A stretch of 64,000 nucleotides of DNA from an uncultured Spirochaetales bacterium (GCA_964440465.1 CAYTSI010000005.1:151-64150); one strand, 5' to 3'. Counted from the first letter of the stretch, positions 12,175-58,476 are shown. Notes: generated by a model from the letters alone, not told the origin. Numbers and translations: made by a program.

Positions 12175-14651
12175 TCATCCGGGACCTGCACATTCATACC
12201 TTCGGGGACTTTCAGGATGTCCGGCTGCAGTTTGCAGACGGGTGTAATATTGTCCTTGGTGAAAATGAAGCGGGTAAGTCAACGGTTTTCAATGTAATCG
12301 ATCATCTGCTGTTTACTCCCGTCAAGCTGACGAAGCGTGAAATGGAAAAAAGCTTGAATCGATGGTTTCCCGTTGGAGGCGGGGATACGTTGAGCGCGGA
12401 ATTATCTGCCGAACTCGGGGACAGAGCTGTTCGGTACTTCAAGTGCTGGGGCGGGAATCCGGAAGGAACAATTCGATTTTCACCGGGAGGGACCTATTCG
12501 GGCGATGATGCCCTCGCTGCGGAAACGGAAAAATTGTGGGGATACTCTCCGGAGACGGTGCGGCAGGTTTGCCTGCTGCGGCAGAGTACCCTCGCGGATA
12601 CGCTGCCTTCCTACCAGAATTCGAAGGAGGTATTGCAGTCTCTTACCGACATCCTGCAAAATTCTTTAATAGAAGGCGGCGGTATTTCCACCTCCGGTTT
12701 TATTGAAACTCTCCGGGACCGGTACAGCTTGTTTTTTTCAAGATGGGACAGAGACCGGAACTATCCGGAAAAAAACAGAGGGATTGAAAATCCATGGTCG
12801 GTAAACGTGGGTACGGTTTTGAAATGGTGGTATGAAATGAAGCGGGCCGAGTTAGAGGTCCGGCGGGTAGAGCAGCTGGAAGACTCAATATGTTTACTGC
12901 AGAGCAGCCAAAAAGAAAAAAAGAAGGAAACGGCAGCTCTCGAGTCGTTTCTTTCTGCCTTTGAGACAGTCTACAACACTGCCGGAGACAGAAAAAGCCT
13001 GGAATTGGAACTGCGGGAAATTATCGGTACGATGGAGCGGATAAAGAAAGACAGTCAATCCTGGGGACGGGGGAGGGATGGTCTTGAACAGGCGCTCCGG
13101 GAGCGGAAAGAAGGGAACGAAGAACTTGGAAAGCTCCGCGGGCGGATCGAAAGCAGGGATGAAGTAACGGCGAAACGGAAACGGTTCGAAAAATATCGTC
13201 GGCTGCTGGAGGTGAAAACAAAACTCGACGCCCTGGAGGCAAAGCTCAGAGAACAGCCGGCAATACCGGAAAAGGATTTGCAGGCACTCCGTGAATCAAG
13301 GTTGGCAATTCGGGAAAGTGAGGTGAAACTGCAGTCCGGAACACTCTTTGCACAGCTGACCGCGAAGAAAAATATCAGTTTTTCCTATACTCCCGGATTG
13401 GGCACTGAAAAGCGGCGTGACCTTATGGCAGGGAATTCGCTTGAAATAACGGCGGAAGGGAAAATTCGGCTGAGCCACGAAGACTGGGAGCTGGATGTTT
13501 ATTCGGGAAACGAAGATTACGAAACCGTCAAAAAGGAGCTGGAGGCAGGCAAAAAAGAGTTTAACGCTCTCTGTGAGAAGTACGGTGTTGTTTCCGTCGA
13601 GGAAGGAGAAGCACAGCGGAAGGTTTATACTGATCTGGAAGGGGAAACGGCACGGGCGCGGAAACAATTTTCCGAGGAACGCGGAGAGGACTCTTTTGAA
13701 GCCCTGAAGAAGGAAGTCGAAAGTTTTGGGGCCCTTCCTGAGGAAACCGACAGTACCGAGCTGGGAAGAGAATACGGTTCTCTCAATGAACGGCTTGCCG
13801 CGCTTGAAAAAACAATACAGGAACATCGGGAACGGTTGTCGTATTTGGAAGAGACATATGGGACGGAGGAAAAGCTTCTGGACATGCTCGCGGACCTCCG
13901 CGGCCGGCAGCGGGACTTGGAGAAACAAGTGGCTGCTCTTCCGGAAATTCCTGACCCCTTCGAAACGGCGGAAGAATTTCTTGAGGCATACAGGGAAAAA
14001 CAAAGAAAAAGGGAGACGCTCCGTCAGGAAATATTTGAGTTAGATAAGGCGGCCGCCCTTGCGGTAAAAGACCTCCCGGACATCTCCCTCGAGGAGCTCG
14101 AAGCGGACGCTGAAGCCGCGCGGCGGCGTTTTCAATCCGCGCTTTCGGAGGGGGAGACAATCGGCCGGATTCTCGAGACAGCGCTGCGGATCCAAAAAGA
14201 AATTCAGGAGAACCCCTATACCGCCTTTATGGAGGCGGCGGAAGCAAACCTTAAAAAAATGACCGGGCAGAGGCTGCAGTATAAAAGCAGATCAGGCGGG
14301 GGGGACGGTCAGGCAGCGGCCCCTTTTCACGGTGATGTTAGAAACAGCCGGGGAGAAATTCTGGCGTACGGACAGCTTTCAGGCGGAACGAAAGACGCGG
14401 TTTCTCTAGCCGTCCGGCTGGCAATGGCGGAGTATTATCTGAAAAATAAAGCAGGGTTTCTCCTCTTTGATGATCCCCTAGTGGAAATGGACCCGCGGCG
14501 CCAGAAGGCCGCCGCCGAACTGCTTTCCGAAACCGCCCGGCGCTACCAGTCGATAATCTTTACCTGTCATCCCCACATGCGCGATTTATTCCCGAATGCC
14601 AATGTAATTGAGCTGCATCGGGACGGGGAACGGAGGCGTGTTAAATTTTAA
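12171..14651 (+). CDS. sbcC: SbcC/Rad50-like ABC ATPase with long coiled coil (YhaN-like)
   Basis: Walker A GENEAGKST near N-terminus, ~600 aa coiled-coil, C-terminal LSGGTKDAVSLA signature and LLFDDPLVEMD Walker B/D-loop. Confidence 0.75.
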   Translation: MIIRDLHIHTFGDFQDVRLQFADGCNIVLGENEAGKSTVFNVIDHLLFTPVKLTKREMEKSLNRWFPVGGGDTLSAELSAELGDRAVRYFKCWGGNPEGTIRFSPGGTYSGDDALAAETEKLWGYSPETVRQVCLLRQSTLADTLPSYQNSKEVLQSLTDILQNSLIEGGGISTSGFIETLRDRYSLFFSRWDRDRNYPEKNRGIENPWSVNVGTVLKWWYEMKRAELEVRRVEQLEDSICLLQSSQKEKKKETAALESFLSAFETVYNTAGDRKSLELELREIIGTMERIKKDSQSWGRGRDGLEQALRERKEGNEELGKLRGRIESRDEVTAKRKRFEKYRRLLEVKTKLDALEAKLREQPAIPEKDLQALRESRLAIRESEVKLQSGTLFAQLTAKKNISFSYTPGLGTEKRRDLMAGNSLEITAEGKIRLSHEDWELDVYSGNEDYETVKKELEAGKKEFNALCEKYGVVSVEEGEAQRKVYTDLEGETARARKQFSEERGEDSFEALKKEVESFGALPEETDSTELGREYGSLNERLAALEKTIQEHRERLSYLEETYGTEEKLLDMLADLRGRQRDLEKQVAALPEIPDPFETAEEFLEAYREKQRKRETLRQEIFELDKAAALAVKDLPDISLEELEADAEAARRRFQSALSEGETIGRILETALRIQKEIQENPYTAFMEAAEANLKKMTGQRLQYKSRSGGGDGQAAAPFHGDVRNSRGEILAYGQLSGGTKDAVSLAVRLAMAEYYLKNKAGFLLFDDPLVEMDPRRQKAAAELLSETARRYQSIIFTCHPHMRDLFPNANVIELHRDGERRRVKF

Positions 14652-14667: not shown

Positions 14668-15645
14668 TTATGAATCGAAGCTGTATTCCCCGCGCCATGA
14701 AACAATGTATTCCCAGACATTTCCCCGCGGCGGCCGTACCGATCCTCCTGTGCCGGGGTCGTACGTCCACGTTCCCGTAATCCCCTTTTCCGCGGCGGCG
14801 GCTTCGAAATGATACATTGCAATTCCCGTATCGATCCGCTGTAGGTCAATGTGCTTCCTGAAAAGCCCGTAAGCTCTGTCCCTTTGCAGAAAAAAATGCA
14901 CCAGGTTCTCCGCTTTCCCGCTGCCCCGGAAGGTGATTATCAGCCGCCATGGCTGCTTGTTTGATGCCGAGGGAGCAAGTCGCACGCATTCGAGAATGAT
15001 CTTTGTTTTTTCGGAAACTTCACTGGGTTGCAGAGGTTTGAGGGGGACAGAGCTGCAGGTAACGAAAAACAGTTTTTCCCACGGTTTCCGGCGTTTCGAT
15101 CCCGCGGCAAATCTGATGAAGCGTGCAGCCGGCCGCCTACGTTCCGCCGGATATCCCACAGGTGTTATTGCAGGGATAATTTCGTTGTCTGGAAGATTGA
15201 GGTATTCTGAAAGTTTCCCGCGCTGAAAAGTTCCCCCGAGCCAGCAGGTCCCGAGGCCGAGATTCGTCAACTGCAGGATAATATGTTCAAAGGTGTAGCC
15301 GAGGTCCGTCATTTTCTGAGGGACAGAGCTGCCTTTTGAGGAATTTTCTATGTTTCGCTTCCGATTTGCAGTGTCCGCCGCGACTGATTTTTCTGTAACT
15401 GTAACAATGCCCGCGGCAAAAAGGCGTGCCCCTCGTATAAAACCGTAAGTACCAAGTGAGCTCCGCCACTCCTCCGGCATACCGGATAGGTCAATCAGCG
15501 TAAACCGGATGCGCGATCCGAACGGCGGGACAGCACCGGGATGTACGATGAGTTTTTCAATTTTATTTACCAGTTCCGGTTCGCAATGCCGCCCAGAATA
15601 AGAGCGGATCGACCTTCTCCGAAGTATTGTATCGTGTATCGTCAT
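14668..15645 (-). CDS. Nitroreductase-family protein (start taken at MTIHDTILRRRSIRSY)
   Basis: N-terminal ILRRRSIRSY nitroreductase motif; larger than typical, may be tandem-domain. Track ORF extends to 15723. Confidence 0.6.
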   Translation of the reverse strand: MTIHDTILRRRSIRSYSGRHCEPELVNKIEKLIVHPGAVPPFGSRIRFTLIDLSGMPEEWRSSLGTYGFIRGARLFAAGIVTVTEKSVAADTANRKRNIENSSKGSSVPQKMTDLGYTFEHIILQLTNLGLGTCWLGGTFQRGKLSEYLNLPDNEIIPAITPVGYPAERRRPAARFIRFAAGSKRRKPWEKLFFVTCSSVPLKPLQPSEVSEKTKIILECVRLAPSASNKQPWRLIITFRGSGKAENLVHFFLQRDRAYGLFRKHIDLQRIDTGIAMYHFEAAAAEKGITGTWTYDPGTGGSVRPPRGNVWEYIVSWRGEYSFDS

Positions 15646-15836
15646 CGTCTCTTGTCGAGGGTAATTATATTCACAGGTAGGAGAATACTCTAATTGGGAG
15701 TCTACTTCTATGGGCGACCTCAAGTTTTCCCTTACTGGTCTGGAGATGTAAAGCGTTTAGGAAAATCAGCTACTTACTCTTAATGCTCCGTCCCTCATCA
15801 ACAGCACCGGTTATCGCTCACCGGTATTCGGCATTA

Positions 15837-16343
15837 TCAGCGTAACTTCATCCAAACCCGCCGCAGGAAATCATTAGGCGGCCGCTCTAATATGTCCAGC
15901 TGTCCCTTATAGATCAAACTCATGCCGCTGTATTTATAGTCTGTCGCGTATTGGACCATTTTGGCGCGAACTGGGTTATTGGCTATATAAACAAATGTGG
16001 CAAGATATTGCAGGAAACTGTGAATTATTTTGCTTTTAAACCGCTCGTTCCATACATGGCCGGTTAGCCCAAATGTTTTATTATACTGCATCGCGAAAAC
16101 GCTTAAAACCCATTGCATAATGGCCGATAAGCTCTCATTATTCAGCGGTTTTATGATGAAATGGTAATGGTTTCCCATTATACAGAAGTTTTTGATAGTG
16201 AAGCGGTATTTTTTTTTTGCCCTTCTGATGACTTCCATAAACATTTCTTGTATTTCCGGTGTTTTGAATATTACTTCTTTGCGGTTCACTCTGGAAACTA
16301 CGTGATAACTTGCCCCATACTGTAATTGCCTTGGTTTTCTCAT
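15837..16343 (-). CDS. IS200/IS605-family HUH Y1 transposase homolog, possibly a REP-associated tyrosine transposase (RAYT)
   Basis: 168 aa; HUH motif GNHYHFII; YHVVSRVNRKEVIF N-terminal motif; VWNERFKSKIIHSF...YIANNPVRAKMV C-terminal similarity to IS200 TnpA/RAYT. No obvious IS ends identified. Confidence 0.6.
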   Translation of the reverse strand: MRKPRQLQYGASYHVVSRVNRKEVIFKTPEIQEMFMEVIRRAKKKYRFTIKNFCIMGNHYHFIIKPLNNESLSAIMQWVLSVFAMQYNKTFGLTGHVWNERFKSKIIHSFLQYLATFVYIANNPVRAKMVQYATDYKYSGMSLIYKGQLDILERPPNDFLRRVWMKLR

Positions 16344-16464
16344 TCTTTACCCCCTCGAATAGTCGGTATTTTTTTTTGCCTATACTTAATAAGAAGGGGT
16401 AAATAGGATTGCTGATTTTAAAATTCGGTCATTTTTTTTATTTTTTTTGCTCTGTCCCCATCTT

Positions 16465-17661
16465 TTAGCTTTTTAACCGCTTGAGAAGTTCCCGGGCGAC
16501 AGCTGTCTCAACTTTATCCTCTGTCCCTAGCCCGCATACAGTACGGACCATGTGTTCATGTCCGTTTGCGGCCAGTTCTTCAGCGAACTGCTTGTCCCCT
16601 GGGAAAAGAATGCCGTTTTCGTCGGATCCGCGGAATGCAAACCCGGCGGCGGCTGCCTCGGCAATTGCGCTATAGGGAAGCCCGTGGGTTTCGGCTAAAA
16701 GCATTGCTCCGACCAGCCTATCGTCTTTGGCAAGTTTCCGTTGAAGGTCCCGGCCGACCCGGAAAATGGTATCACCCAATGCTTTATTTCGGAACCTGTT
16801 TAGAAGGTCGCCAATGTGTTCTCGGAGCGCGTCCAGAGAGAGATCGGCCGGGTACGCGGCGTGAAGGGCTTCTCCTGACTGTTCCATTGCTTTTTGTACT
16901 TTATCCTTAATTTCCGGAAGCTCAAGGGGTTCCCAGATGTAGGTAAACCCGGGTTCCTTACGATATCCGATATACGCCGCCGCCGCGTGACCCATATTAT
17001 GAATGAACAGTTTCCTGTCTACGTAGGCGGTTATATTTTCCACTGCTTTTATCTCGGGGAAATCCGGCACTTCTCGGACAAATCCGTGTTTATCAAGGAT
17101 AAGCGTATTGTATTCTTCCGAGAATACCCACAGTGGATCTTCGTTTTTGTCTTCCTCCCGCATAATCGGTACCATTTTCCCAATACTCGTTTCAACCAGG
17201 CCCACTGTTTTCTGAATGGGGAAGCCGGGAGGTAGATATTTCTGCAGTTCCCTTCTAAAAAAAGCAGCTCCGTCCCTCATATTTTCAGCAATAATGATGT
17301 CGATTTTTGCCGCTTCCGTCCGCATTTTTATCCCTTCGGCAATAACGGGGATTATATGCGGTAAGACCCCCTTCCCAACAGACGTGGCAATGTACGCCGC
17401 TTTGGAAATTTCTTCCGCTACTGCAGCTCTGTCCCTGCCGTCGACGGCTCGGACACCGGTAACGAAGACCTCTTCATCTTCCTGATTGTTCCGTTTAATA
17501 ATGACACGATAGGAGTTCCTGCTGTTCAACTCCCGTATCAGCGTTTCATCAATATCGACAAAGACAACCTCATAACCGTTGCCTGCAAACACCTTCCCGA
17601 TAAATGATCTGCCGATATTTCCGGCACCGAACTGCACTAGTTTTTTCTGTTTTTCCTGCAT
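16465..17661 (-). CDS. mtlD: Mannitol-1-phosphate 5-dehydrogenase
   Basis: KLVQFGAGNIGRSFIG N-terminal Rossmann motif and overall collinearity with E. coli MtlD (~380 aa). Confidence 0.8.
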   Translation of the reverse strand: MQEKQKKLVQFGAGNIGRSFIGKVFAGNGYEVVFVDIDETLIRELNSRNSYRVIIKRNNQEDEEVFVTGVRAVDGRDRAAVAEEISKAAYIATSVGKGVLPHIIPVIAEGIKMRTEAAKIDIIIAENMRDGAAFFRRELQKYLPPGFPIQKTVGLVETSIGKMVPIMREEDKNEDPLWVFSEEYNTLILDKHGFVREVPDFPEIKAVENITAYVDRKLFIHNMGHAAAAYIGYRKEPGFTYIWEPLELPEIKDKVQKAMEQSGEALHAAYPADLSLDALREHIGDLLNRFRNKALGDTIFRVGRDLQRKLAKDDRLVGAMLLAETHGLPYSAIAEAAAAGFAFRGSDENGILFPGDKQFAEELAANGHEHMVRTVCGLGTEDKVETAVARELLKRLKS

Positions 17662-17748
17662 ACCCTATTATAAAGTGTTCGTGTACTCCGATACAAGCCG
17701 AGCGGGAGAGCCTGTCCTTGCCTCCGAAGGCCTTCAGTGCTCTGTCCC

Positions 17749-17794: not shown

Positions 17795-18769
17795 ATGATC
17801 ATATTTGAAATACTAAAGAAAAGTGAGGCTGATGTGAAACCAGTAATAACTGCATATGGCGAGGCCCTGTGGGACCTTCTGCCGGAAGGCCCGGTCTTAG
17901 GCGGGGCATTGCTGAATTTTACCTACCGGGCAAAGAGCTTAGGCGCTGACGCGGAATGTATCAGCAGGCTCGGTATGGACGATTTGGGGGACAGAGCTGC
18001 CGGAAAAATGAACGACTTGGGGTTTGATATGAATTATATTCAGAGGGACAGTGCTCACTCTACCGGGACGGTCCCAGTCAGTTTTGATGAACAGAAAAAT
18101 CCCAGCTATGTCATTACCCCGGAGGTTGCGTTTGATTTTATTGAAGACACGGAAAATCTTGAGGCCAGAATACAACAATCCGACTGCCTCTGCTTCGGGA
18201 GCCTTATTCAGCGCGCTCCGGTTTCGCGGGAAACCCTCTACAAACTGATCGAGCAATTCGGGGGCAGGTACCTGCTTTTCGATATCAATTTACGAAAAGA
18301 CTGTTATTCCTCCAAAACGGTGCGCACGTCCCTGGAAAAATGTCATATTGCGAAGCTCAATGAGGACGAACTGCATGAGCTTAAAGAATTAATTGGAATT
18401 TCCGGGAATTCAGTCCGGAAACTGACGCAATCCTGTGTTGAAACCTACGGTTTGACCTATTGTCTCGTAACTTTAGGAGACAAGGGGCTTTTTGCCGCGG
18501 CTGATTCGGGGACAGAGGTGTATGTTCCGGGTATTGTCGTCGACCTTGTCGACCCGATTGGTGCCGGGGACGCCTGTACGGCAGGGTTTATTTTTTCTCT
18601 CCTGCAGGACAGTCCTCTCGATTACGCGTGCAAATATGCCAATGCAATCGGTGCGGCGGTCGCGGAAACTTCCGGGGCCACCGGTTTTGTATCGAAAGAG
18701 CGGATCGAAGCGGTCCTCCGCGGTGGGGACTATTCGGAGCCTCATCCAGAATTTCGGAGGAAGTACTGA
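17795..18769 (+). CDS. PfkB-family carbohydrate kinase (fructokinase/ribokinase-like)
   Basis: C-terminal DPIGAGDACTAGF anion-hole/GAGD motif; ~320 aa. Confidence 0.75.
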   Translation: MIIFEILKKSEADVKPVITAYGEALWDLLPEGPVLGGALLNFTYRAKSLGADAECISRLGMDDLGDRAAGKMNDLGFDMNYIQRDSAHSTGTVPVSFDEQKNPSYVITPEVAFDFIEDTENLEARIQQSDCLCFGSLIQRAPVSRETLYKLIEQFGGRYLLFDINLRKDCYSSKTVRTSLEKCHIAKLNEDELHELKELIGISGNSVRKLTQSCVETYGLTYCLVTLGDKGLFAAADSGTEVYVPGIVVDLVDPIGAGDACTAGFIFSLLQDSPLDYACKYANAIGAAVAETSGATGFVSKERIEAVLRGGDYSEPHPEFRRKY

Positions 18770-19120: not shown

Positions 19121-19173
19121 GGGACAGAGCATGCCGATCGATGCCTAATTAATTCGTTGACAGGGGACAGAGC
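19121..19173 (+). repeat. Two same-strand copies of GGGACAGAGC 43 bp apart in intergenic region
   Basis: 19121-19130 and 19164-19173, between ferredoxin terminator and secreted-protein gene. Confidence 0.7.
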
Positions 19174-23192: not shown

Positions 23193-23561
23193 ATGCCGTT
23201 TAGTATTTTGGAAAAAGACAGGAAGACATTTGAATATTTTAAAAAATACGTTGAGTTTTTAGAGCTCGAGGAAAACACCTGTCTCATCCTTGACAACAAG
23301 ATACAATCCGAGGAAATCCAGGAGCATTTGCGCCGGACCGGTCATAACAGCGGAATGGATGGAAGGAAAAAAGAGATTATTTCACAGTGGATTAAAGAAA
23401 ATGCCCGTCCGTTCCGGGATTATCTGAACAGCATCAAACTTGCCTATGTCGTATGGAAATGCATGGGCAAAGAATGGTCCGAGATAACCTGGGAAGAGTT
23501 CTTCAAAATCGAAGAGCGCCTCAATTCCCTCAAGTACAAATGTCTCGATACGATTTTTTAA
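23193..23561 (+). CDS. Hypothetical protein
   Basis: 122-aa ORF, no recognisable motifs. Confidence 0.3.
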   Translation: MPFSILEKDRKTFEYFKKYVEFLELEENTCLILDNKIQSEEIQEHLRRTGHNSGMDGRKKEIISQWIKENARPFRDYLNSIKLAYVVWKCMGKEWSEITWEEFFKIEERLNSLKYKCLDTIF

Positions 23562-25399
23562 GAAAACATCATGCTGTTCACGTAATCGTCCATAAACTCC
23601 GGCGAAGATGACAATTCAATATATTCGGTCTGTTCACTCAGTGCCCCGCATTCCTGTAATTTTTCCCGGGACAGCAGCGCCATAATCGCGCCGGAGCCGG
23701 CTGCATTGCCGATAACTTCAATCTTGTTTTCCAGTTCTTTGGGAATAAGGCCGATATGTATTGCGTGATGTTTATCGATATAGCTGCCGAATCCGCCCGC
23801 GAGGAACACCCGTTCGATATCATGAACGCTCTTACCGGCGGTTTTCATGAGGGTGGTTATTCCCGCTGCAATTGAAGCTTTCGCGTTTTGCACCTCCCGT
23901 ATGTCCTTCTGGGTAAGAAGAATTGCATCGCCGTGGGACGTATCTTCAGCCTTTACCAAGGTGTAGGCGGTCTGTTTGTCGAGTTTGGTCAGGTTTTCCG
24001 CTAAATGCTTTCCGGTTTCGTTTTCTATATCATCGGCATCAACCATCCTGCCGGTTTCATCGATAATACCGGCATAGAGCAGGTTGGAAATGGCATCCAC
24101 AATTCCGGAACCGCAAATGCCTAAAGGTTTTTTATCGGCAATGGTAGTACAGGATATCGATGAATCGTGAAGGGCGACCGTATCGATTGCTCCGGCTATT
24201 CCTCCGACTCCGTCCCTGATGGTGGCGCCTTCAAATGCCGGTCCGGCCGCGGTGGAACAGGAAAGCAGCCGGTCCTTGTTTCCGAGCATAATTTCACCGT
24301 TTGTTCCGATGTCGATGAGGAGGCTCAAGCTTTCTTCTTTTGCCATTCCGCTGGCCAATGTAGCGGCGGTAATGTCCGCGCCGATATAGGCTGAAATCCC
24401 GGGCAGCAGATAGATCCACCCCTGTTCGGCAATGGCAATCCCCATTTCAGCCGCGGTTGTCCGCGTCATTTCCAGACTGGCGGGGATAAAGGGCGCCGCG
24501 GCGATATTTTTCGGAGGTATTCCCGCCGCGAGGTGCATCATGGTGGAGTTCCCCACGATGGTCATGCTGTAGATGCTCTTCCGGTCAATTGCATATTTGG
24601 AGACAAGCGAATCGATGAGGTCATTCAGCTGCCCGATAATGCCGTTGTGCAGTGTTTCCAAGCCCTGTTCATTCGTCATGGTGTGATTTATCCGGGCAAT
24701 AACGTCCTGTCCGTAACTTTTCTGCACGTTCAGGCCGGAGGCCACGCCGATTTTTTTCCCGGAAGTCATGTCTAAAAGATAGACGACCACGGTTGTTGTC
24801 CCGATATCCACCGCCAGGCCGTAATTGATATCTTCGGTGTTCCCCTGCTCGATGGTCAGAATCTGCGCGTCGTTGTAGACCGCGGTAGCGGAAAAACCGT
24901 TGTCCCGAAGCACCGAGGGCAGTTTTCCGATCTCATTCAGCGTAATCCTGTGGTCCGGCAGTTTGAGTTCGTCCCGAAGCCTTTTCAGGTCGTCCCGCTG
25001 GTCTTCTAAGGTCGGCTTGGAAAGGGAAACATATTTCTTTTTAATGCATGGGTTTAGATGTTCCCGAAACTCGCTGCTGTCCTCTAATATAACGATCTGT
25101 CCGGACTTGTCGTTTAAGGTAACGGTAATGTCTCCGGTTATCTGAGTAGAACAGGCAAGTCTGTATCCCCGGGCGAGTTCGGTTTCCGACAGTTTTTTCT
25201 TTTCAATTTCGGTAACGCCGGAAGCTCCGTCCCCCTCTACACGGACAAGGCATTTGCCGCAGGTCCCCCTCCCCCCGCAGGGTGTTTCGATAAACGACCT
25301 GTATTTTTCACCCACCGCTTCTAAAATCGTAGTTTCTTTTTTGCATGATACCGTTTCTGTTTCGTTTTCGGTAATAATGGTAACGTTGTATTCTGACAT
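23558..25399 (-). CDS. RACo-type ATP-dependent reductive activator of corrinoid proteins (2Fe-2S ferredoxin domain + ASKHA ATPase/DUF4445)
   Basis: N-terminal plant-type ferredoxin Cys pattern (PCGGRGTCGKC...C) followed by ~500-aa ASKHA-like domain (DIGTTTVVVYL). Confidence 0.7.
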   Translation of the reverse strand: MSEYNVTIITENETETVSCKKETTILEAVGEKYRSFIETPCGGRGTCGKCLVRVEGDGASGVTEIEKKKLSETELARGYRLACSTQITGDITVTLNDKSGQIVILEDSSEFREHLNPCIKKKYVSLSKPTLEDQRDDLKRLRDELKLPDHRITLNEIGKLPSVLRDNGFSATAVYNDAQILTIEQGNTEDINYGLAVDIGTTTVVVYLLDMTSGKKIGVASGLNVQKSYGQDVIARINHTMTNEQGLETLHNGIIGQLNDLIDSLVSKYAIDRKSIYSMTIVGNSTMMHLAAGIPPKNIAAAPFIPASLEMTRTTAAEMGIAIAEQGWIYLLPGISAYIGADITAATLASGMAKEESLSLLIDIGTNGEIMLGNKDRLLSCSTAAGPAFEGATIRDGVGGIAGAIDTVALHDSSISCTTIADKKPLGICGSGIVDAISNLLYAGIIDETGRMVDADDIENETGKHLAENLTKLDKQTAYTLVKAEDTSHGDAILLTQKDIREVQNAKASIAAGITTLMKTAGKSVHDIERVFLAGGFGSYIDKHHAIHIGLIPKELENKIEVIGNAAGSGAIMALLSREKLQECGALSEQTEYIELSSSPEFMDDYVNSMMFS

Positions 25400-25444
25400 A
25401 GGACATCCTTTCTTACATATAGAATTTTTAATATATTGATTAAT

Positions 25445-25720
25445 TTACATCGATTTTATCAATTGTTCAAGTCTGTTTTCGGTAATAATTGAACCGGCAC
25501 TGACCTGTTTTCCCCGAACAAGAAGGGCGGGAAACTGATGAATTTCAACACCGGGTACCGTGCATTCTTCATCCGCCCGGAGTTTTACATGATTTATTTG
25601 TATATCGGGATGTTTGGTCTGTATCTCACGCAATACTTCACGAACAATTTGATCGCTAATTGTGCAGGAAGCGCAATGCTGGTCTTTTGAAACAAGGGTA
25701 ATGGTAACAGGTTCAGCCAT
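25445..25720 (-). CDS. Small thioredoxin-fold redox protein (CxxC)
   Basis: 91 aa, HCASC motif and FPALLVRGKQVSAG resembling small redox-active disulfide proteins. Confidence 0.45.
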   Translation of the reverse strand: MAEPVTITLVSKDQHCASCTISDQIVREVLREIQTKHPDIQINHVKLRADEECTVPGVEIHQFPALLVRGKQVSAGSIITENRLEQLIKSM

Positions 25721-26651
25721 TTCCTTCTATTGTACACGCTTTAATGCTTTGCGCAAGAGATTCTTCGCTGATGCTGCCGCGGATAAGGACGATTTTGCTG
25801 CTGTTTGCTTCGAGAAGCGCGGGAACAGGGGGTTTTTCGGAATAGACGCCGTCAATAATTTCAAAGTACTTCGGACCTTCGGGAAAGCGGAGGACCCCTT
25901 TGCCACGGAGTATTTCCGGTTGTATTTTTTTAATATACGCCTCCCATTTCCCCCGGTCGAGGAGGGCTTTCAGTTCAATACTGAAAGAGAAAAAATTATC
26001 CGGCGGTGTATCGCTGCATTTTTCGGGGACATCCTTCTGCCGCGGCGCGATTTCTTCCAGTGCGTCCCGGGAAACTTCCCCGAAACGGGCGGGAAAGATG
26101 GGGGCGGATTCATTATGTTCCCGCAGAAGCTTTTCCGTTTCTTCCAACCGCTCCGGCGTTACCGTGTCGACTTTATTCAGAATAAAGGCGTCGGCGTATT
26201 CTGCCTGGATCTGTACCGCCTCTAAGGTGGCCTCGACTTTATGAAAATTCGCCGCGTCGATAACACAGAAATTCTGTTCCAGTGATATCAGCTTATCGAG
26301 CCCGTCGAGGCGCATCATGGCATACATATCATCCACCCGGGCGATCCCGGTTGCTTCGATAAGGAGAAAATCGGGCCGCGTCTTCTCCGCTATGTTTTTC
26401 AGCTCCGCGATAAAATCGGTGCGCATGCATACGCAGAAAATGCTGCCCTTGTTGAGTTCGATTTTGTAAAAATCGCCCTCCCGTACCAGGGCGCCGTCAA
26501 TCCCGATGGACCCGAACTCATTAATCATCACCGCGAGTTTTCCGCCCCGGGTACTGTACCATTCGATAAGCCGGTTAATAAGTGTCGTTTTCCCGGCGCC
26601 TAAGAACCCCGTAACCAGGACGGTTTTAATTAGAGGATAGCTTTGATCCAT
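25713..26651 (-). CDS. CobW/COG0523-family metallochaperone GTPase
   Basis: VTGFLGAGKTTL P-loop, CVC metal-binding motif, ~310 aa. Confidence 0.75.
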   Translation of the reverse strand: MDQSYPLIKTVLVTGFLGAGKTTLINRLIEWYSTRGGKLAVMINEFGSIGIDGALVREGDFYKIELNKGSIFCVCMRTDFIAELKNIAEKTRPDFLLIEATGIARVDDMYAMMRLDGLDKLISLEQNFCVIDAANFHKVEATLEAVQIQAEYADAFILNKVDTVTPERLEETEKLLREHNESAPIFPARFGEVSRDALEEIAPRQKDVPEKCSDTPPDNFFSFSIELKALLDRGKWEAYIKKIQPEILRGKGVLRFPEGPKYFEIIDGVYSEKPPVPALLEANSSKIVLIRGSISEESLAQSIKACTIEGNG

Positions 26652-28249: not shown

Positions 28250-28388
28250 TATATTCTCCTTACATATGAATATACAAAAATTGCCGCTCTGGAGAAAGGA
28301 TGATCTTTCTAATTTTTGTAATTCCTCTTCCTCCGTCCCCTCATTTATGGTATTTTAGCTGTGGACCCGCAAAATAGAAGGAGAAGAT

Positions 28389-43691: not shown

Positions 43692-44228
43692 CTAGGAGAC
43701 GCCGGCTTCCGCAAGTGAAAACACCTGCTCCATGGTTTCGGTGTTATTCGCCCGAAACACCTCGTGATCCTGGACGTCGAAAAAGATCACCGTTGGAGAG
43801 GCAAGTACCTGATGCTCTATCGCCGAATCCATTCCTTCGGGGGTATCAACATCGACGGAACTGCCGGGCATGGAAAGCTTGTTTACATATTCTTTAACCG
43901 GAGGACAATTCGGGCATGTGCCGCGGTAAAAAAACGTATAGGAAGCGGCCGATTCCGCGATGTCCCGGGGAGGGGACCCGCCGGTGCCCATCTCTTTTCC
44001 CGCGAATTCCGGCTGCCTCGAGCCGTGTTTTATCATGTTTTTCGGTTCCGAAAACAGCTTTCGGTAGTCGTATTCCTCCCGCTTCCCCTTGTTCCAATTT
44101 GCCACGGAACGGTAATATCCGACAATCCGCGTATATACTTCGGTTTTCGTACCGGTCACGCCCCGCAGATGCTGTTGTAATTCGGCTATTTCTTTGTCCA
44201 CCTGTTCAACTGTTCGTGTCGCGTTCAT
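43692..44228 (-). CDS. Stand-alone glycyl-radical domain (NrdD C-terminal-like) fused to CxxC redoxin domain
   Basis: N-terminal TEVYTRIVGYYRSVANWNKGKREE matches NrdD glycyl-radical motif (RVCGYLG...N.GK..E); C-terminal YTFFYRGTCPNCPPV...SPTVIFFD thioredoxin/glutaredoxin fold. ATG overlaps nrdD stop (ATGA). Confidence 0.6.
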   Translation of the reverse strand: MNATRTVEQVDKEIAELQQHLRGVTGTKTEVYTRIVGYYRSVANWNKGKREEYDYRKLFSEPKNMIKHGSRQPEFAGKEMGTGGSPPRDIAESAASYTFFYRGTCPNCPPVKEYVNKLSMPGSSVDVDTPEGMDSAIEHQVLASPTVIFFDVQDHEVFRANNTETMEQVFSLAEAGVS

Positions 44229-46351
44229 TTCTTCTCTCCCTTCTGTGTTTTAACCAGTTTCTGCTTTTCTGTTTGCAGTTCATCGAGCCGCCGCTGGATT
44301 TTCTCCCGTTCTTCATCGGCGCATTTCGGGCAGGCGAAATGTTCACCGTTTAAATATCCGTGTATCGGGCAGATAGAGAACGTCGGCGAGATGGTAAAAT
44401 AGGGGAGCCTGTAATTCCAGGCAATGGCGCGCACGAGATTTCTGCATGCCTCCCAGTTGTCCACGGCTTCACCCAGAAATCCATGGAATACAGTCCCCCC
44501 TGTATATTTAATTTGAAGCTCGTCCTGATGGTCGAGGGCCTCAAAAATGTCCGAAGTAAAATCGACGGGCATCTGCGTCGAATTGGTGTAGAAGGGCTCC
44601 TGAACGCCGCTGGTAATAATGTCCGGATACCGCTCTCTGTCGTGTTTTGCCAGCCTGTAGGAGGTGCTCTCCGCGGGTGTTGCCTCAAGATTGAACAGGT
44701 CTCCCGTGTCTTCCTGCAGGTCCGCAAGGTGCCGCCGCATGTAGTCGAGAATTTCCAGAGCAAATTCGCGGCCTGTTTCGGTGGTCATGTCCTCTCCTGA
44801 AAAATTAAGAGTGCATTCGTTCATCCCCACGATGCCGATAGTCGAAAAGTGGTTGTCCAGGTGTTTCAGGTACCGTTTGGTATATGGAAACAGTCCGGCT
44901 TCCATCAGCCTGTTGATTACCTTCCGTTTAATAGTGAGGGACTCCGCGGCGGTGTCCATCAGTTCGGTAAGCCGGTGGAAGAAATCCACTTTCGTGTTCG
45001 AAAGATATCCGATTCTCGGAAGGTTGATGGTTACCACCCCGATAGACCCGGTAAACTCGTCGGAACCGAAGAGGCCGCCCCCCCGTTTCCGGAGTTCCCG
45101 CTTGTCCAGCTGCAGCCGGCAGCACATGGAGCGGACATCCCCGGGATTCAGGTCGCTGTTGACGAAATTCTGAAAGTAGGGTGTTCCGTACTTCGAGGTC
45201 ATTTCAAACAGCAGTTTCGCGTTTTCCGAATCCCAGTTGAAATCGTCGGTAATGTTGTAGGTGGGTATAGGATATTGAAACCCCCGGCCGTTGGCGTCAC
45301 CGTCAATCATAAGATGAATGAAAGCCTTGTTGATGAGGTCCATCTCCCGCTGACAGTCGCCGTAGGTAAAGTCAAGATCTTCACCCCCCACAATTGCCGG
45401 CCGTTCCTGCAGGTCGGAAGGAACATTCCAGTCCAGGGTAATGTTGGTGAACGGCGCCTGACTTCCCCAGCGGGACGGTGTATTAACACCGAAAATAAAA
45501 CTCTGGATTGCCTGTTTTACCTGTTCGAAGCTTAAATCATCAATTTTTACAAAGGGGGCCAAGTAGGTGTCGAAACTCGAAAGCGCCTGCGCGCCGGCCC
45601 ATTCGTTCTGCATAATCCCTAAAAAATTGACAATCTGCTGAATTAAGGTGTTTAAGTGCTTTGCCGGTTTCGACGTAATTTTATCGGGAACGCCGCCTAA
45701 GCCTTCCATAATCAGCTGACGCAGGGACCAGCCGGCGCAGTAGCCGGAAAACATTGACAGATCGTGGATATGAAAATCGGCATTCTGATGGGCCATGGAA
45801 ACGTCCTCGGGATAGATGTTTTTAAGCCAGTAATTTGCCGTGATGGTACCCGAATTGTGAAGGACCAGCCCGCCTAATGAAAAATTAACGTTGGCGTTTT
45901 CGTTTACCCGCCAGTCGGACTGGCTTAAGTATCCGTCCATGGTTGAGCTGATGTCCAGTGTCAGCTTTCTGGTGTCCCTTATTATCTCATGTTTGGCCCG
46001 GTAGATAATATAGGCTTTTGCAATATCGAACTGCTTCCTTTCCATCAGGACCGTTTCCACTAAGTCCTGTATCTCCTCTATTGCCGGTACCGAGTTCGGA
46101 TGCCGTGCGGACATTACCTTCCGCATCCGTTCCTCCACCTGACTTGTAAGCTCCTCTACAAAGTCGAGGTCTTCCTCTCCCCGGACTGCCCGGACCGCTT
46201 TCCCGACGGCCCCGGCAATTTTCCATCGGTCATACTTTTCCAATTTCCCGTTTCTTTTAATAACCTGCCGTATCACTGCCCCTGCAGCCGGCTTCTCGGA
46301 ACTCTCTATGCCGAGAAACTCCTCCCAATAGCTGCGTCCTGTATGCTCCAA
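44225..46351 (-). CDS. nrdD: Anaerobic (class III) ribonucleoside-triphosphate reductase catalytic subunit, apparently lacking its own glycyl-radical domain
   Basis: N-terminal ATP-cone (VIKRNGKLEKYDRWKI), core RNR-III motifs, C-terminal Zn-site CPIH...CPKC, then ends with basic coiled tail without the RxxGY motif. Confidence 0.85.
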   Translation of the reverse strand: MEHTGRSYWEEFLGIESSEKPAAGAVIRQVIKRNGKLEKYDRWKIAGAVGKAVRAVRGEEDLDFVEELTSQVEERMRKVMSARHPNSVPAIEEIQDLVETVLMERKQFDIAKAYIIYRAKHEIIRDTRKLTLDISSTMDGYLSQSDWRVNENANVNFSLGGLVLHNSGTITANYWLKNIYPEDVSMAHQNADFHIHDLSMFSGYCAGWSLRQLIMEGLGGVPDKITSKPAKHLNTLIQQIVNFLGIMQNEWAGAQALSSFDTYLAPFVKIDDLSFEQVKQAIQSFIFGVNTPSRWGSQAPFTNITLDWNVPSDLQERPAIVGGEDLDFTYGDCQREMDLINKAFIHLMIDGDANGRGFQYPIPTYNITDDFNWDSENAKLLFEMTSKYGTPYFQNFVNSDLNPGDVRSMCCRLQLDKRELRKRGGGLFGSDEFTGSIGVVTINLPRIGYLSNTKVDFFHRLTELMDTAAESLTIKRKVINRLMEAGLFPYTKRYLKHLDNHFSTIGIVGMNECTLNFSGEDMTTETGREFALEILDYMRRHLADLQEDTGDLFNLEATPAESTSYRLAKHDRERYPDIITSGVQEPFYTNSTQMPVDFTSDIFEALDHQDELQIKYTGGTVFHGFLGEAVDNWEACRNLVRAIAWNYRLPYFTISPTFSICPIHGYLNGEHFACPKCADEEREKIQRRLDELQTEKQKLVKTQKGEKK

Positions 46352-53851: not shown

Positions 53852-55759
53852 ATGAACGACAAAGAAAACCAATTTCAAAATCAATTTGACAAACTGCCCG
53901 GCTTTTCCGGCGGGGACAACGGCAACTTTTTCCGCAAATGGGGACCGCTGCTTCTCCTGCTCCTTCTGTTTACCATTCCCTGGATCGTGACCCTCTTTTC
54001 CGGAGGGGTAACCCGTACACAGGTAAGCTATTCCTTTTTTATTCAACAGCTGAACGAGGGAAATATCGAGTCCGTGCTGGTCCGCGGCGAAGAAATACAA
54101 GGAACGCTGAAGGAAAATGCCCTGACGCTGTCGACGGAAGGGGACGGCGGGGGGACGGAGGTGCGCCGGTTTACCACATTTTATCCGGCAAAGATCAGCA
54201 GTTCGCTCATTTCCGACCTCCAGGGCGGCAATGTTGTGGTATACACCCAGCCTGAAAGGGAGGGGGATTTTTTTACCGTTCTTCTGAATATTCTTCCGTT
54301 TCTTTTTATTTTCTGGATCATTTTTCGGCTTTCCAAACGGATGCGCGCCCAGGGCGGAGGGCTGTTCAATGTTGGCCGGAACAAAGCGAAAAAATATGAA
54401 AAGAAACGGCAGGAGGAAACCACCTTTGACGATGTGGCAGGGATAGAATCGGCGAAGGCCGAACTCAAGGAAATTGTCGATTTTTTAAAGAAGCCGGACA
54501 AGTACCGCAATTTCGGCGCGAAAACGCCGAAGGGAGTACTGTTAGTGGGTCCTCCGGGGACCGGAAAAACGCTCCTTGCCCGCGCGGTCGCGGGGGAGGC
54601 GGATGTGCCCTTTTTCAGCATCAGCGGTTCCGATTTTATGGAAATGTTTGTCGGTGTCGGCGCTTCACGGGTGAGAAATCTGTTTCGGGACGCAAAAAAG
54701 CAGCAGCCGAGTATTATTTTTATCGACGAACTCGACTCCATCGGCAGGAGCCGGGGCGCGGGTTTAGGGGGCGGACACGACGAGCGGGAACAGACCCTCA
54801 ATCAGCTCCTTTCCGAACTGGACGGATTCGAGCAGGACGAAAGCACAATCGTTCTAGCCGCTACCAATCGGCCGGACATTCTCGACCCCGCTCTGCAGCG
54901 CCCGGGAAGGTTTGACCGGCAGATTACCACAAATCTGCCGCCGAAGAAGGACAGAACGTCTATTCTGCGAATCCACAGTAAAAACAAACCATTGGCGGAA
55001 TCCGTGGACCTCGAGCGGCTTGCCTCGAGCACACCCGGGTTCAGCGGCGCGGATTTGGCAAACCTGCTGAACGAGGCGGCCTTGATCGCGGTAAAAAACG
55101 GGAAAAAGGAAATTGAACAGGAGGACCTTGATACGGCCAGGGACAAGGTGATACTTGGTCTTGAACGGAAAAGTGTCGTCATGAGCGACCGGGAAAAGGA
55201 GATTGTAGCGTATCACGAATCGGGGCATGCCTTAGTGGCGGCGCTCCTTCCCAATGCGGAGCCGGTCCACAAGGTCACCATTATCCCACGGGACCGTTCC
55301 ATGGGGGCGACGCAGCAGCTTCCCGAAGAAGACAGGTATCTGTATGAACTCGCCTATCTGCAGGACCGGATTTCGGTAATGATGGGAGGCCGGGCGGCTG
55401 AAAAACTGAAAACCGGTACCCTGACAAGCGGCGCGGAAAACGACTTGAAGGAGGCACAGAAACTCGCGCGGAAAATGGTCCTTGACTGGGGAATGGCGGA
55501 ACAATTCGAGAATATCGCCATGGGCAGCCAGCGGCAGAATGTTTTTTTAGGTGAACAGATCGCGGCTGAAAAAGAGTACAGCGAAGAGACAAACCGGCAC
55601 ATCGATGAAGCGGTGCAAAAACTGCTGACCGATGCTTTTAACCGGGCAACGGAAAACTTACAGGAGCAGGAGAAAGTCCTGGACGGTATTGCCGAAATAC
55701 TGCTGCGGGAAGAGGAGATATCCGGGCGGCAGATTTATGAAATGCTCCACACACAGTGA
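53852..55759 (+). CDS. ftsH: ATP-dependent zinc metalloprotease FtsH
   Basis: [18 protein letters not shown] Walker A, SRH region, HESGHAL zinc motif. Confidence 0.9.
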
Positions 55760-56229: not shown

Positions 56230-58476
56230 TTGAAAAGAAACGGTAACTATATACCGGTAATTGTCGCGGGAATAATTATTTTCCTGTTTGTTACCGGAGA
56301 AATTACACTGCGGCATCTCCCCTTTCCCGAACTTGAGGCGTTTCAGAACAGGGCGTACAGTACAATAGTAACCGACAGAAACGGCACAATTCTCAGAATT
56401 CTTCCTCTCGAAGGAGGATTGAGGCGGGAATACGTTCCCCTCGAAGAACTGCGCCCGGAGATTGTCCGGATTTTTATCGAAAGCGAAGACAAGCGGTTCT
56501 CTTTTCACCGCGGTGTGGACGGTTTTGCCGTGCTGCGCGGTTTTTTTCAAAACAGACGAGCGGGACGGACGGTTTCGGGGGCGTCCACCATCTCCATGCA
56601 GCTGGCGGGTCTTGTCCGCCCGCGAAAGCAGACCGTCGGGGGCAAGGTCCTTGAAGCCTGGGACGCCCTTCGCCTGGAGGCAAAACTCTCGAAACGGGAA
56701 ATCCTCGAGCTGTGGCTAAACTCTCTCCCCTTCGGCAGGCAGGCGGAGGGTGTCGGGAGCGGCAGCAGGGCCTACTTCAATATATCCGCCGCGGACCTCT
56801 CAATTCCGGAGGCGGCCCTTCTTGCCGTTGTTCCGAGGCATCCGAAAAAGTACAGCCCCGTCGACAATCCAGAGGGCGCGTATGAAGGCGCGCTCCGCAA
56901 TGCCGGGAGGCTTCGTACGGACATTTCCGCACAGGAGCTGCGGAAGGCCGCCCGGGCCGCGGAGCCGGGAAATTTTATCTACCACGCGCCCCATTTTCTT
57001 CGTCAAATAGGGACAGAGCTCGGCGGCAAGCAGGGCGGCAGGGTAACAACCACATTGGATCTGGAACTTCAGCAGCATTTTCACCGTCTTTTGTCCACCT
57101 ATCAGCAGCGGTACGCCCAAAGCCGCATTACCAGCGCCGCCGGAATGCTCATCGACAATCATACGGGCGAAGTCCTTGCCTACGTCGGTTCACTCGACTT
57201 TTTCTCCGGCAGAGCGGGGGAGCAGCTGGACGGGGTAACCGTCCCGCGGCAGCCCGGGTCCTGTCTTAAACCCTTTCTTTACGCGGCGGCGCTGGAGGAC
57301 GGGTGGTATCCGAACACACTGCTTCCCGACGTCCCGCTCAATTTCGGCGGGGGCGAGGTATATGTGCCTTCGAATTTCACAAATTCTTTTTCCGGTCCCG
57401 TCAGGCTTCGGGTTGCCCTCGGGTCGTCTCTGAACGTACCGGCGGTCTATCTGTTGGATGAGATCGGGTTGGAACGGTTCGGGGAGCTGCTGCGGGCGGC
57501 GGGTTTTCACGTCGGAGCGGGCGCGCTTGAGAAGGCGGGCCTCGGCGCCGCGTTGGGCAATCTGGATGTCTCCCTCCTGGAACTGACCCGGGGCTTCGCC
57601 CTTTTCCCCCGGCGTGGTGTGCCCCTGGAGCTTTCATGGACACTCCCCGAAGTTTTCGAAGGGCCCTCCCCCGCGGGACGGGCCGTTTCCGAATACACCG
57701 CCGATATTATCTGCGACATCCTCTCGGACCCGGCGGCGAGGGCCCGGGGGTTCGGGTACAATTCCGCTTTTACCCTTCCCTTTCCCGCCATGTTTAAAAC
57801 CGGGACAACCGATCAGTTTCAGCACATCTGGGCCCTTGCCGCGACGCCGGATTATACCGTGGGCATATGGATGGGAAACAACACCGGGGAAACGGTAATC
57901 GGCCGGACCGGTTCCTCCGTCCCCGCGCGGATAGCGGCTGAAGTGCTTACCTTCGCGCGGAAGGGGAGGGCGGAATTCCCGGTCCCGGCGGGGGCGGTGC
58001 CGGTGGAGATCTGCACAGTATCCGGGCAGCGGGGGACGGAGCTCTGTCCCTCCGTTGTTACCGAATACCTGCCGGCGGCCGGCGGGGAAGGGGCTGTACC
58101 CGGTCCCTGTACATTTCATATACTGCGAAACGGTACGGTAACAACCGAGTATCCGGAAAAATATCATGCATGGCTGCGGGAGCTGGGCCGGTCGGGGGGA
58201 TTTTCCTTCTCCGGCGGAGAAGGCCTTGAAATTATTCACCCCCGCGGCGGAGCGGTATTTTACTATGACCCGACAGTTTCCGCCGGAGTCCAGGCGCTGC
58301 GGGTCGAGGCAGCTGCCGGCAGGCCCGGGGCCTGCACACTCTATGTAAACGGCGAAAGGGCGGGTACTGTTTTCCATCCCCCCTATGTATGGTTTTTGCC
58401 GCTTCAGCGGGGAGCGTGGGAATTGACCGTATCGAATACCGGTTCCGAGGCGACGGTGCGCGTCGAAGTCCGCTAA
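56230..58476 (+). CDS. pbpC: Penicillin-binding protein 1C (GT51 transglycosylase + transpeptidase + C-terminal domain), TTG start
   Basis: EDKRFSFHRGVD and GASTISMQLA GT51 motifs; transpeptidase domain; co-localised with alpha-2-macroglobulin as in many bacteria. Confidence 0.8.
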   Translation: MKRNGNYIPVIVAGIIIFLFVTGEITLRHLPFPELEAFQNRAYSTIVTDRNGTILRILPLEGGLRREYVPLEELRPEIVRIFIESEDKRFSFHRGVDGFAVLRGFFQNRRAGRTVSGASTISMQLAGLVRPRKQTVGGKVLEAWDALRLEAKLSKREILELWLNSLPFGRQAEGVGSGSRAYFNISAADLSIPEAALLAVVPRHPKKYSPVDNPEGAYEGALRNAGRLRTDISAQELRKAARAAEPGNFIYHAPHFLRQIGTELGGKQGGRVTTTLDLELQQHFHRLLSTYQQRYAQSRITSAAGMLIDNHTGEVLAYVGSLDFFSGRAGEQLDGVTVPRQPGSCLKPFLYAAALEDGWYPNTLLPDVPLNFGGGEVYVPSNFTNSFSGPVRLRVALGSSLNVPAVYLLDEIGLERFGELLRAAGFHVGAGALEKAGLGAALGNLDVSLLELTRGFALFPRRGVPLELSWTLPEVFEGPSPAGRAVSEYTADIICDILSDPAARARGFGYNSAFTLPFPAMFKTGTTDQFQHIWALAATPDYTVGIWMGNNTGETVIGRTGSSVPARIAAEVLTFARKGRAEFPVPAGAVPVEICTVSGQRGTELCPSVVTEYLPAAGGEGAVPGPCTFHILRNGTVTTEYPEKYHAWLRELGRSGGFSFSGGEGLEIIHPRGGAVFYYDPTVSAGVQALRVEAAAGRPGACTLYVNGERAGTVFHPPYVWFLPLQRGAWELTVSNTGSEATVRVEVR
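58033..58050. repeat. Palindromic head-to-head pair of the over-represented motif (GGGACgGAGC|TCTGTCCC)
   Basis: gggacggagctctgtccc inside pbpC coding sequence. Confidence 0.6.

Follow-up and report, generated by a model that had tools for sequence, protein, structure and literature searches.

A short, largely intragenic DNA word linked to a RAYT gene in an uncultured Spirochaetales bacterium

Families of REP (repetitive extragenic palindromic) sequences are assigned to REP-associated tyrosine transposases (RAYTs) when the transposase gene has on its flanks a repeat of which the genome holds many copies (PMC2817692, PMC5581495). The closest described systems are those of E. coli, in which the RAYT TnpA_REP is associated with REP/BIME repeats, and of Pseudomonas fluorescens with its REPINs; in these, as at the locus described here, a RAYT gene is flanked by an over-represented repeat with variants of the lineage's own. 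The RAYT gene of such systems is single-copy and vertically inherited, and REPINs have been reported to decay once it is lost (bioRxiv 10.1101/2021.07.10.451892). The locus lies in a 64,000-nucleotide stretch of DNA (hereafter the window) from an uncultured Spirochaetales bacterium (GCA_964440465.1 CAYTSI010000005.1:151-64150), in which a RAYT gene at 15837-16343 (minus strand) is accompanied by an 11-12-nt word that recurs on both strands. We read this word as the cognate end motif, or "tag", of a vertically inherited, single-copy RAYT that was multiplied in one subclade including the window, a reading to which we assign a probability of about 0.5; the evidence points to an unusual, hairpin-less and intragenic relative of the REP/RAYT repeats.

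Two further groups of short, abundant words bear comparison. The DNA uptake sequences (DUS) of Neisseriaceae and the uptake signal sequences (USS) of Pasteurellaceae are, like the word in the window, 9-12 nt long and present at about 0.3-1 per kb on both strands, within genes and in several frames, with lineage variants, an origin by point substitution and some inverted pairs (PMC3630211, PMC1626085, PMC2817400). HIP1 (GCGATCGC) of cyanobacteria, whose function has long been unresolved, is likewise a hyperabundant short word, largely genic and maintained at the DNA level (PMC5861425, PMC4390886); it is, however, a palindrome of eight bases with a link to orphan methyltransferases, whereas the word described here is longer, lacks symmetry and has its link to the gene of an HUH nuclease.

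A hyperabundant word maintained at the DNA level

The word GGGACAGAGC occurred in 22 exact copies over both strands of the window, against 0.13 expected from dinucleotide shuffles (largest value 2) and 0.17 from a third-order Markov model. An unbiased k-mer count recovered a wider family, GGGAC[A/G]GAG[C/G], with 43 copies against 0.58 expected. A purine preceded every family copy and T or A usually followed, giving the form R-GGGAC[A/G]GAG[C/G]-(T/A); the remaining eight positions were near-invariant, with 43 perfect copies and just 2 carrying a single mismatch. Copies were spread very unevenly, with 2-5 per kb in three clusters (12.4-19.2, 33-37 and 41.9-43.3 kb) and about 0.25 per kb in the background; no family copy was found between 43.3 and 54.1 kb (about 10.8 kb, spanning nrdD, nrdR and a gene for a 1926-aa alpha-2-macroglobulin) or in the last 5 kb (59000-64000).

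An earlier, sequence-only reading of the window had drawn attention to the word. Its claim of over-representation held when tested against the Markov model, but the family proved wider than it had described; all 20 of its exact positions (13 on the plus strand, 7 on the minus) were correct, and to these were added two copies outside its range, at 2750-2759 and 3238-3247 (both minus), which lie antisense in a single RnfC/Nuo51-like gene. Three one-mismatch sites had also been listed: the GGGACAGAGG variant at 16518-16527 (minus) was correctly placed, whereas the other two positions were about 10 nt away from the true GGGACAGAGG sites at 18509-18518 (plus) and 27214-27223 (minus). The palindrome reported at 58033-58050 does consist of two copies, a GGGACGGAGC variant at 58033-58042 (plus) and an exact copy at 58041-58050 (minus, antisense in the PBP1C gene); being one G-form and one A-form that overlap by 2 nt, they make an imperfect palindrome and not a perfect one.

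When each copy was mapped onto the predicted genes, the described spread over both strands, multiple frames, genes and intergenic DNA was borne out. Thirty-seven of the 43 family copies (about 86%) lay inside open reading frames with Pfam support, on both strands and in several frames, and the six intergenic copies fell in 6.6% of the sequence, an enrichment of about 2-fold. [quoted passage not shown] The GGGACGGAGG variant, mostly read in frame as Gly-Thr-Glu (8 sense to 1 antisense), is what a coding origin would produce. The exact copies, in contrast, occupied three sense frames as well as antisense frames, and when synonymous codons were shuffled gene by gene, 0.57 exact copies were obtained within coding sequences where 18 were seen, and 2.15 family copies where 37 were seen, in agreement with the earlier proposal that selection acts on the DNA and not on a protein repeat.

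The 40 nt on each side of the copies shared no similarity, and the word is therefore not a piece of a longer dispersed repeat; had it been one, the sequence-only reading would have been undone. A long dispersed repeat or MITE was accordingly rejected as a candidate on its unrelated flanks; REP-type hairpins at the copies were rejected as well, since no excess of hairpins was found beside them and their folding energies were those of random sites. Sites gained in one lineage also carried no indels (see below). The artefact reading is refuted for the family as a whole, and we give it next to no credence; coding constraint at most adds to some of the GGGACGGAGG copies.

Within coding sequences the family was oriented 27 sense to 10 antisense, and the exact word 10 to 8. 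Composition-matched, purine-rich 7-mers showed a sense bias of 1.9:1, which the bias of the family did not exceed, and we therefore ascribe it to purine loading of the coding strand. A transcription-linked role at the RNA level, hinted at by this bias and by the sense orientation of all six intergenic copies, was set aside because the genic ratio was no greater than that of the control.

The suggestion that the word resembles a Chi-like recombination hotspot fared less well. A Chi word, or a polar word of the FtsK-orienting (KOPS) type, would be read by RecBCD/AddAB or FtsK, and its orientation would be selected relative to replication. The word is indeed G-rich, asymmetric, lineage-specific and over-represented, and SbcCD genes lie nearby, which is circumstantial. 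Known Chi or KOPS words are 5-8 nt long, unlike the 11-12 specified bases and more than 70-fold excess seen here. Within the window, the strand split of the family (25 plus, 18 minus) showed no skew, despite a cumulative GC skew that rose monotonically throughout; this argues against a polar word, as does the agreement between word orientation and gene strand, which was no closer than expected from purine loading. A Chi- or KOPS-like function would also leave the link to the RAYT gene unexplained, and we regard it as very improbable.

The RAYT gene and the word at its ends

The 168-aa product of the open reading frame at 15837-16343 (minus), in the middle of the densest word cluster, is identified as a RAYT by a sequence model, by its catalytic residues and by its fold. 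It matched the Pfam Y1_Tnp family (E 2e-15) and passed the NCBIfam REP_Tyr_transpos model marginally (80.2, cut-off 80), but failed the IS200 model (32.7 against 55). Its only sequence match in the PDB was 4ER8, E. coli TnpA_REP, with Y119 aligning to Y115 of that structure; the two histidines of its HUH motif (H59-Y-H61) and the catalytic tyrosine, Y119, were invariant across 51 homologues. An AlphaFold2 model (pLDDT 92) gave 4ER8 as its top fold match, with a template-modelling (TM) score of 0.71 compared with about 0.52 for the TnpA proteins of IS200, IS608 and ISDra2.

The sequence read amounted to about 64 kb for this genome and to 10-40 kb for each relative. The DNA of the window is chromosomal, comes from an anaerobe and was put together from metagenomes of hypersaline or microbial-mat origin (source mats: PRJEB25599 and JGI 3300012009), and its FtsH and PBP1C proteins are closest to those of Spirochaetota metagenome-assembled genomes (MAGs); the best FtsH match in a scan of genome contigs, to an uncultured Spirochaetales, was 63% identical, and PBP1C was 44-46% identical to proteins of Treponema and Breznakiella. 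The word was missing from these distant FtsH-matched loci, and the scan yielded no close reference genome. A metagenome scan with the RAYT returned matches of just 24-40% identity, of no use for comparison, and exact-protein look-ups led instead to closer relatives. A single MAG (GCA_964606455.1) holds L111 and L126, with 88% DNA identity to the window, and L087, L088, L127 and L128 belong to one species, with about 72%; L090, L112, L114, L094, L113, L115 and L116 represent seven further lineages. Of these, L112 comes from GCA_964410865.1, L114 from GCA_016932135.1, L113 from GCA_054003195.1, L115 from GCA_054015315.1 and L116 from a complete genome of 3.79 Mb. The RAYT was thereby sampled in ten lineages (window, L111, L087, L090, L094, L112, L113, L114, L115 and L116), at 53-100% protein identity.

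The RAYT gene was present once in the window and occupied the same place in L111 and L087, between genes for a mannitol dehydrogenase and a nitroreductase-like protein; its position was thus syntenic in three species with 72-88% DNA identity. On the criteria of PMC5581495, a single copy in the window and a shared position suggest that it behaves like a domesticated, vertically inherited gene.

In all ten lineages a sense-oriented word lay 29-143 nt upstream of the RAYT start, even where the word was nearly absent from the surrounding 20 kb (L094, L113 and L116). In the window this is the exact, intergenic copy at 16449-16458 (minus), 105 nt before the ATG. Conservation between lineages started exactly at the upstream word, and the genes further upstream differed. 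In L113, L115 and L116 (39-40% GC), the RAYT gene was bracketed by inverted repeats of 21-24 nt with the word as their core and arms 780-840 nt apart, while the word was otherwise nearly absent from 20 kb; L114 carried an inverted word pair upstream of the gene, and the window and L090 carried a second word 3' of it in direct orientation, which in the window is the intergenic GGGACGGAGC variant at 15785-15794 (minus), 43 nt past the stop codon. The RAYT-flanking copy was the dominant local variant, and the variants tracked the RAYT tree. By its upstream copy in ten of ten lineages, its inverted brackets in three and the match to the local variant, the gene is flanked by an abundant repeat in the manner by which REP families are assigned. 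The sequence-only reading had preferred DUS-, Chi- or other recognition-word behaviour to classical REP elements; its comparison with DUS was borne out by the density, the lineage variants and the in-place origin, and its distinction from REP elements by the missing hairpins, but the opposition that it drew to REP overlooked a RAYT gene that stands within the densest cluster and is word-flanked here and in nine other lineages.

In several respects the repeat departs from known REPs. Rather than imperfect palindromes of 20-40 nt or hairpin doublets, the copies are 11-12 nt long and form neither palindrome nor hairpin, apart from occasional inverted pairs (L087 6500/6543, L114 9846/9901 and window 58033/58041); rather than extragenic, they are mostly within genes; and they arise by substitution. 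The GTAG head is absent from the word, whose complementary strand has CGTC or TGTC. The latter is a resemblance only to the head of the "CGTC-tagged" REPs, which are said to have no dedicated transposase (PMC3733652). The test for RAYT-repeat association based on flanking 16-mers (PMC5581495) would miss the word altogether, and RAYT-associated repeats can thus escape the usual screens for extragenic, palindromic sequences of at least 16 nt.

The leader of the RAYT gene (16344-16448, minus) begins right after the upstream word with an A-rich block, which the alignment showed to be kept in L087, L090 and L111. It also contains a predicted stem (16346-16403, minus; RNAalifold) of 6 bp, in which a CCCCTT run pairs with the ribosome-binding site GAGGGG just before the RAYT start; the stem was kept in L111, L087 and L090, with compensatory changes at 3 pairs. 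In IS200 a leader stem occludes the ribosome-binding site, and the predicted structure suggests that translation of the RAYT may be occluded in the same way as that of IS200 tnpA. The locus thus resembles IS200/IS605 elements in its Y1/HUH fold and catalytic motifs, in a leader stem over the ribosome-binding site and in a specific short sequence abutting its left end, but differs from them in failing the IS200 model, in being single-copy in the window and in being syntenic across species. Neither inverted repeats nor the subterminal hairpins of IS200/IS605 were found in the interval 15700-16560 around the gene, and no sigma-70 promoter or terminator above chance was detected at the RAYT-flanking word.

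These observations also bear on the possibility that the word arose and functions independently of the RAYT, for example as a host recognition word, and that the RAYT cassette inserts at it, much as a fixed short target directs IS200/IS605 elements to its 3' side. An insertion target would account for the copy at the left end of the cassette, for conservation that begins immediately 3' of the word, for the location of RAYT genes in word-dense regions and at different genomic sites in different lineages, and for the direct orientation of the flanking copies in the window and L090, as top-strand cleavage sites predict. It is harder to reconcile with L113, L115 and L116, in which the word is rare in 20 kb yet forms both arms of an inverted repeat, like the ends of an element; moreover, a RAYT found once in the window and keeping its position between species with only about 72% DNA identity does not behave as an insertion sequence that still moves. 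We consider this explanation distinctly unlikely.

Word density also varied with lineage and with distance from the RAYT gene. Outside the immediate flanks it was 0.56-0.89 copies per kb in clade A (window, L111, L087 and L090), 0.21-0.27 in clade B (L112 and L114) and 0-0.11 in the other RAYT lineages (L094, L113, L115 and L116). Proximity was tested with copies less than 600 nt from the RAYT excluded, over a zone of 0.6-3.5 kb and with small counts, and the enrichment was about 2-fold. In the window, 11 words fell in this zone against a mean of 4.2 under a sliding-position null (P=0.017), and over seven loci with unrelated neighbourhoods 14 of 26 words fell within 3.5 kb, where 7.4 were expected (circular-shift P=0.007). 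RAYT loci were 4-6 times denser than a non-RAYT locus of the same MAG or sample (L111 0.89 vs L126 0.21 per kb; L087 0.56 vs L127 0.09 per kb). Since the window, L111 and L087 are syntenic, this comparison counts once and not three times; L126 and L127, furthermore, each share their gene order with the part of the window at 46-64 kb, which is word-poor. The scarcity of the word in these two regions, as in the word-free stretches of the window to which they correspond, has gene age, expression and distance from the RAYT as candidate causes.

Turnover of sites and the origin of the word

As the sequence-only reading had proposed looking for, the word was present in relatives in variant forms. 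The predominant "dialect" was GGGACAGAGC(T) in the window and L111, GGGGACGGAGCT in L087, where the A-form was absent, GGGGAC[A/G]GAGGA in L090 and GGGGACAGAGGAA in L112 and L114; GGGACGGAGCT and GGGACAGAGGAA were among the lineage-specific forms of related species. Sister lineages differed in A versus G at position 6 and in C versus G at position 10, with RAYTs that were 62-88% identical.

In pairwise alignments, A-to-G and G-to-A switches at orthologous sites followed the variant of the lineage; the exact copy at 17988-17997 (plus, sense in a PfkB kinase gene) was represented in L087 by GGGACGGAGC, and the GGGACAGAGG variant at 16518-16527 by GGGACAGAGC in L111 and GGGACGGAGC in L087. Many sites were private to one species, and here the difference consisted of substitutions alone, sometimes clustered, with no indels. 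For the exact copy at 17426-17435 (minus, sense in the mannitol dehydrogenase gene), the orthologous site in L087 lacked the word with no indel, and at about 21060 the window and L111 differed by 3 changes in 10 nt between identical flanks. Sites were conserved slightly more often than random 10-mers (3 of 10 vs 0.10; 10 of 15 vs 0.47); from this weak conservation it follows that abundance is kept up by the continuing creation of copies, a form of drive, and not by the conservation of particular sites. Loci of the window strain itself (L001-L006, 99.9% identity) were left out as uninformative on turnover.

Gain and loss by substitution, rapid turnover and weak conservation of sites are equally what would be seen of a DUS/USS-like word, in which case a competence receptor would prefer word-bearing DNA, or transformation would be biased towards it, and the copies at RAYT genes would be bystanders of the same drive. 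This is the main rival explanation. The presence of 0.3-0.7 copies per kb on the two strands together, the majority of them genic and read in several frames, a sharply defined word whose variants differ by lineage, and occasional intergenic inverted pairs such as L087 6500/6543 all fit an uptake word, and a genic orientation bias is known for uptake sequences too (PMC2346458); density, lineage variants and in-place origin are accounted for equally well by either explanation. What an uptake word leaves unexplained is the bracketing of the RAYT in word-poor lineages and the clustering near it, as the distribution of DUS or USS would be expected to be independent of a transposase, and the word is tied to the RAYT both physically and evolutionarily. 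No competence genes were present within the 64-kb window, and uptake words have been documented in Neisseriaceae and Pasteurellaceae only (PMC3630211, PMC1626085), which belong to a different phylum. We therefore judge an uptake word to be unlikely.

If the word is instead the end motif of the RAYT, the ancestral state would be a RAYT gene bracketed by inverted word copies, with the word confined to the ends of the gene. In one subclade of uncultured Spirochaetota-like bacteria the word would then have risen in number to about 0.25 per kb, and to 2-5 per kb in local clusters, of which one has the RAYT gene at its centre. The multiplied unit would be the 11-12-nt word alone, made in place by substitution and not by insertion, through a process that rewrites near-cognate sites where they stand. 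The RAYT may bind or nick the word in single-stranded DNA, and its activity may keep creating and homogenising copies; it might do so by starting template switching or short-patch templated conversion at near-cognate sites, or by biasing recombination towards single-stranded DNA that carries the word. That the RAYT itself is the driver we infer from the linkage, from the co-variation of word variant and RAYT lineage and from proximity.

Several points weigh against the end-motif reading. Binding and cleavage by the TnpA_REP of E. coli require the REP hairpin as well as GTAG (PMC3479197), and neither a hairpin nor a conserved flank accompanies the copies described here; recognition by the RAYT of the window, if any, must therefore differ. 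The proximity signals of the window, L111 and L087 are not independent, as these loci are syntenic, and two of the dense clusters, those at 33-37 kb and 41.9-43.3 kb, sit 17-27 kb from the RAYT gene. RAYT lineages at 39-45% GC have hardly any extra copies, and the presence of a RAYT is thus not sufficient for expansion. A "genome-wide" distribution of the word is an extrapolation from the stretches read. Finally, no Y1-transposase reaction is known by which a word of 10-12 nt is written into a gene with no indel left behind.

A domesticated RAYT that "paints" the host chromosome with its own recognition word, by short-patch rewriting or by favouring word-bearing single strands, is a tentative proposal that we hold to be somewhat unlikely. 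If true, perfect copies would keep arising in genes without indels, would be homogenised to the variant of the lineage and would pile up near the RAYT. This would be a new, transposition-independent route by which an HUH enzyme drives the concerted evolution of a word genome-wide, and a mechanistic bridge between REP/RAYT systems and hyperabundant words of the DUS and HIP1 type. The function of RAYTs and their retention as single copies, and the origin of intragenic words such as HIP1, are open questions that this one clade brings together, as it spans a natural gradient from the word at RAYT ends only to the word throughout genes; with a short, defined word and sister RAYTs that differ, specificity-swap biochemistry and comparative genomics are both feasible.

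Remaining copies and neighbouring genes

Within the first cluster, exact copies were also found at 12418-12427 (plus, sense in an SbcC-like gene, read as GDRA), in a nitroreductase-like gene at 14873-14882 (minus, sense), 15044-15053 and 15320-15329 (both plus, antisense), and in intergenic DNA at 17739-17748 (minus); a GGGACGGAGG variant lay at 13860-13869 (plus) and a GGGACGGAGC variant at 17267-17276 (minus). In the SbcC-like gene, L111 (14060-14100) carried a 15-nt tandem duplication (CTGTCCCCGAGTTCG twice) where the window (12405-12435) had a single word; one unit of the duplication completed the word and the other fell short of its last three bases.

The cluster ends with two exact intergenic copies at 19121-19130 and 19164-19173 (both plus), a direct pair 43 nt apart. 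Intergenic copies tended to pair in this way, with starts 40-56 nt apart: paired sites were seen at 19121-19173 in the window, 6500-6552 in L087, 9846-9914 in L114, 9889-9938 in L113 and 11326-11390 in L111, the pairs of the window, L111 and L113 being direct and those of L087 and L114 inverted. One orthologous spacer held a direct pair in the window, an inverted pair in L087 and a single copy in L111.

The second cluster included exact copies at 33050-33059 (plus, sense in a VWA gene, read as GTEL), 34854-34863 and 35892-35901 (both plus, sense in a histidine kinase gene) and 37055-37064 (minus, sense in an ARMT1-like gene), with GGGACGGAGG variants at 34575-34584 and 36382-36391, a GGGACAGAGG variant at 35109-35118 and a GGGACGGAGC variant at 36026-36035 (all plus). 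An operon of VWA, histidine kinase and response regulator genes (32954-36621) is itself a word-rich cluster, with 9 copies; its orthologue in L090 (5051-9045) lies directly upstream of the RAYT gene, with some copies at apparently matching positions, and the cluster may be the trace of an older RAYT location.

In the third cluster, exact copies lay at 41956-41965 (minus, sense, third frame) and 42137-42146 (plus, antisense) in an LPP20-domain gene and at 42988-42997 and 43250-43259 (both plus, antisense) in a radical-SAM gene, and GGGACGGAGG variants at 42411-42420 and 43125-43134 (both minus). When this cluster (41.9-43.3 kb) was considered as a former RAYT neighbourhood, through the neighbours of the RAYT in L114, no homology was found and the idea was dropped.

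Outside the clusters, an exact copy was present at 57010-57019 (plus, sense in the PBP1C gene). GGGACGGAGC variants were present at 7145-7154 (minus), 11747-11756 (plus) and 25224-25233 (minus), and GGGACGGAGG variants at 28330-28339 (minus, intergenic), 30335-30344, 39296-39305 and 54152-54161 (all plus) and 57914-57923 (minus). In the literature, matches to the word itself were limited to primers and eukaryotic sequences. When viral contigs were scanned for pairs of exact words spaced 20-50 nt apart, 9 matched (L117-L125) and were rejected as unrelated: the matches were local short tandem repeats in DNA that was otherwise word-free.

Two groups of other genes in the window are worth recording. 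The anaerobic ribonucleotide reductase gene (43692-46351, minus) looks split: the open reading frame at 44225-46351 spans positions 1-538 of Pfam NRDD, and a second frame at 43692-44228, overlapping it by 4 nt, has an N-terminus that corresponds to NRDD 532-562, the glycyl-radical end. At 23558-28249 and 60230-61654 lie genes for an MttB-family methyltransferase, a RACo corrinoid activase, a fusion of URO-D/MtaA-like and thioredoxin domains, and CobW; these corrinoid-dependent methyl-transfer genes suggest demethylation of methylamines or betaine in this spirochaete-like anaerobe.

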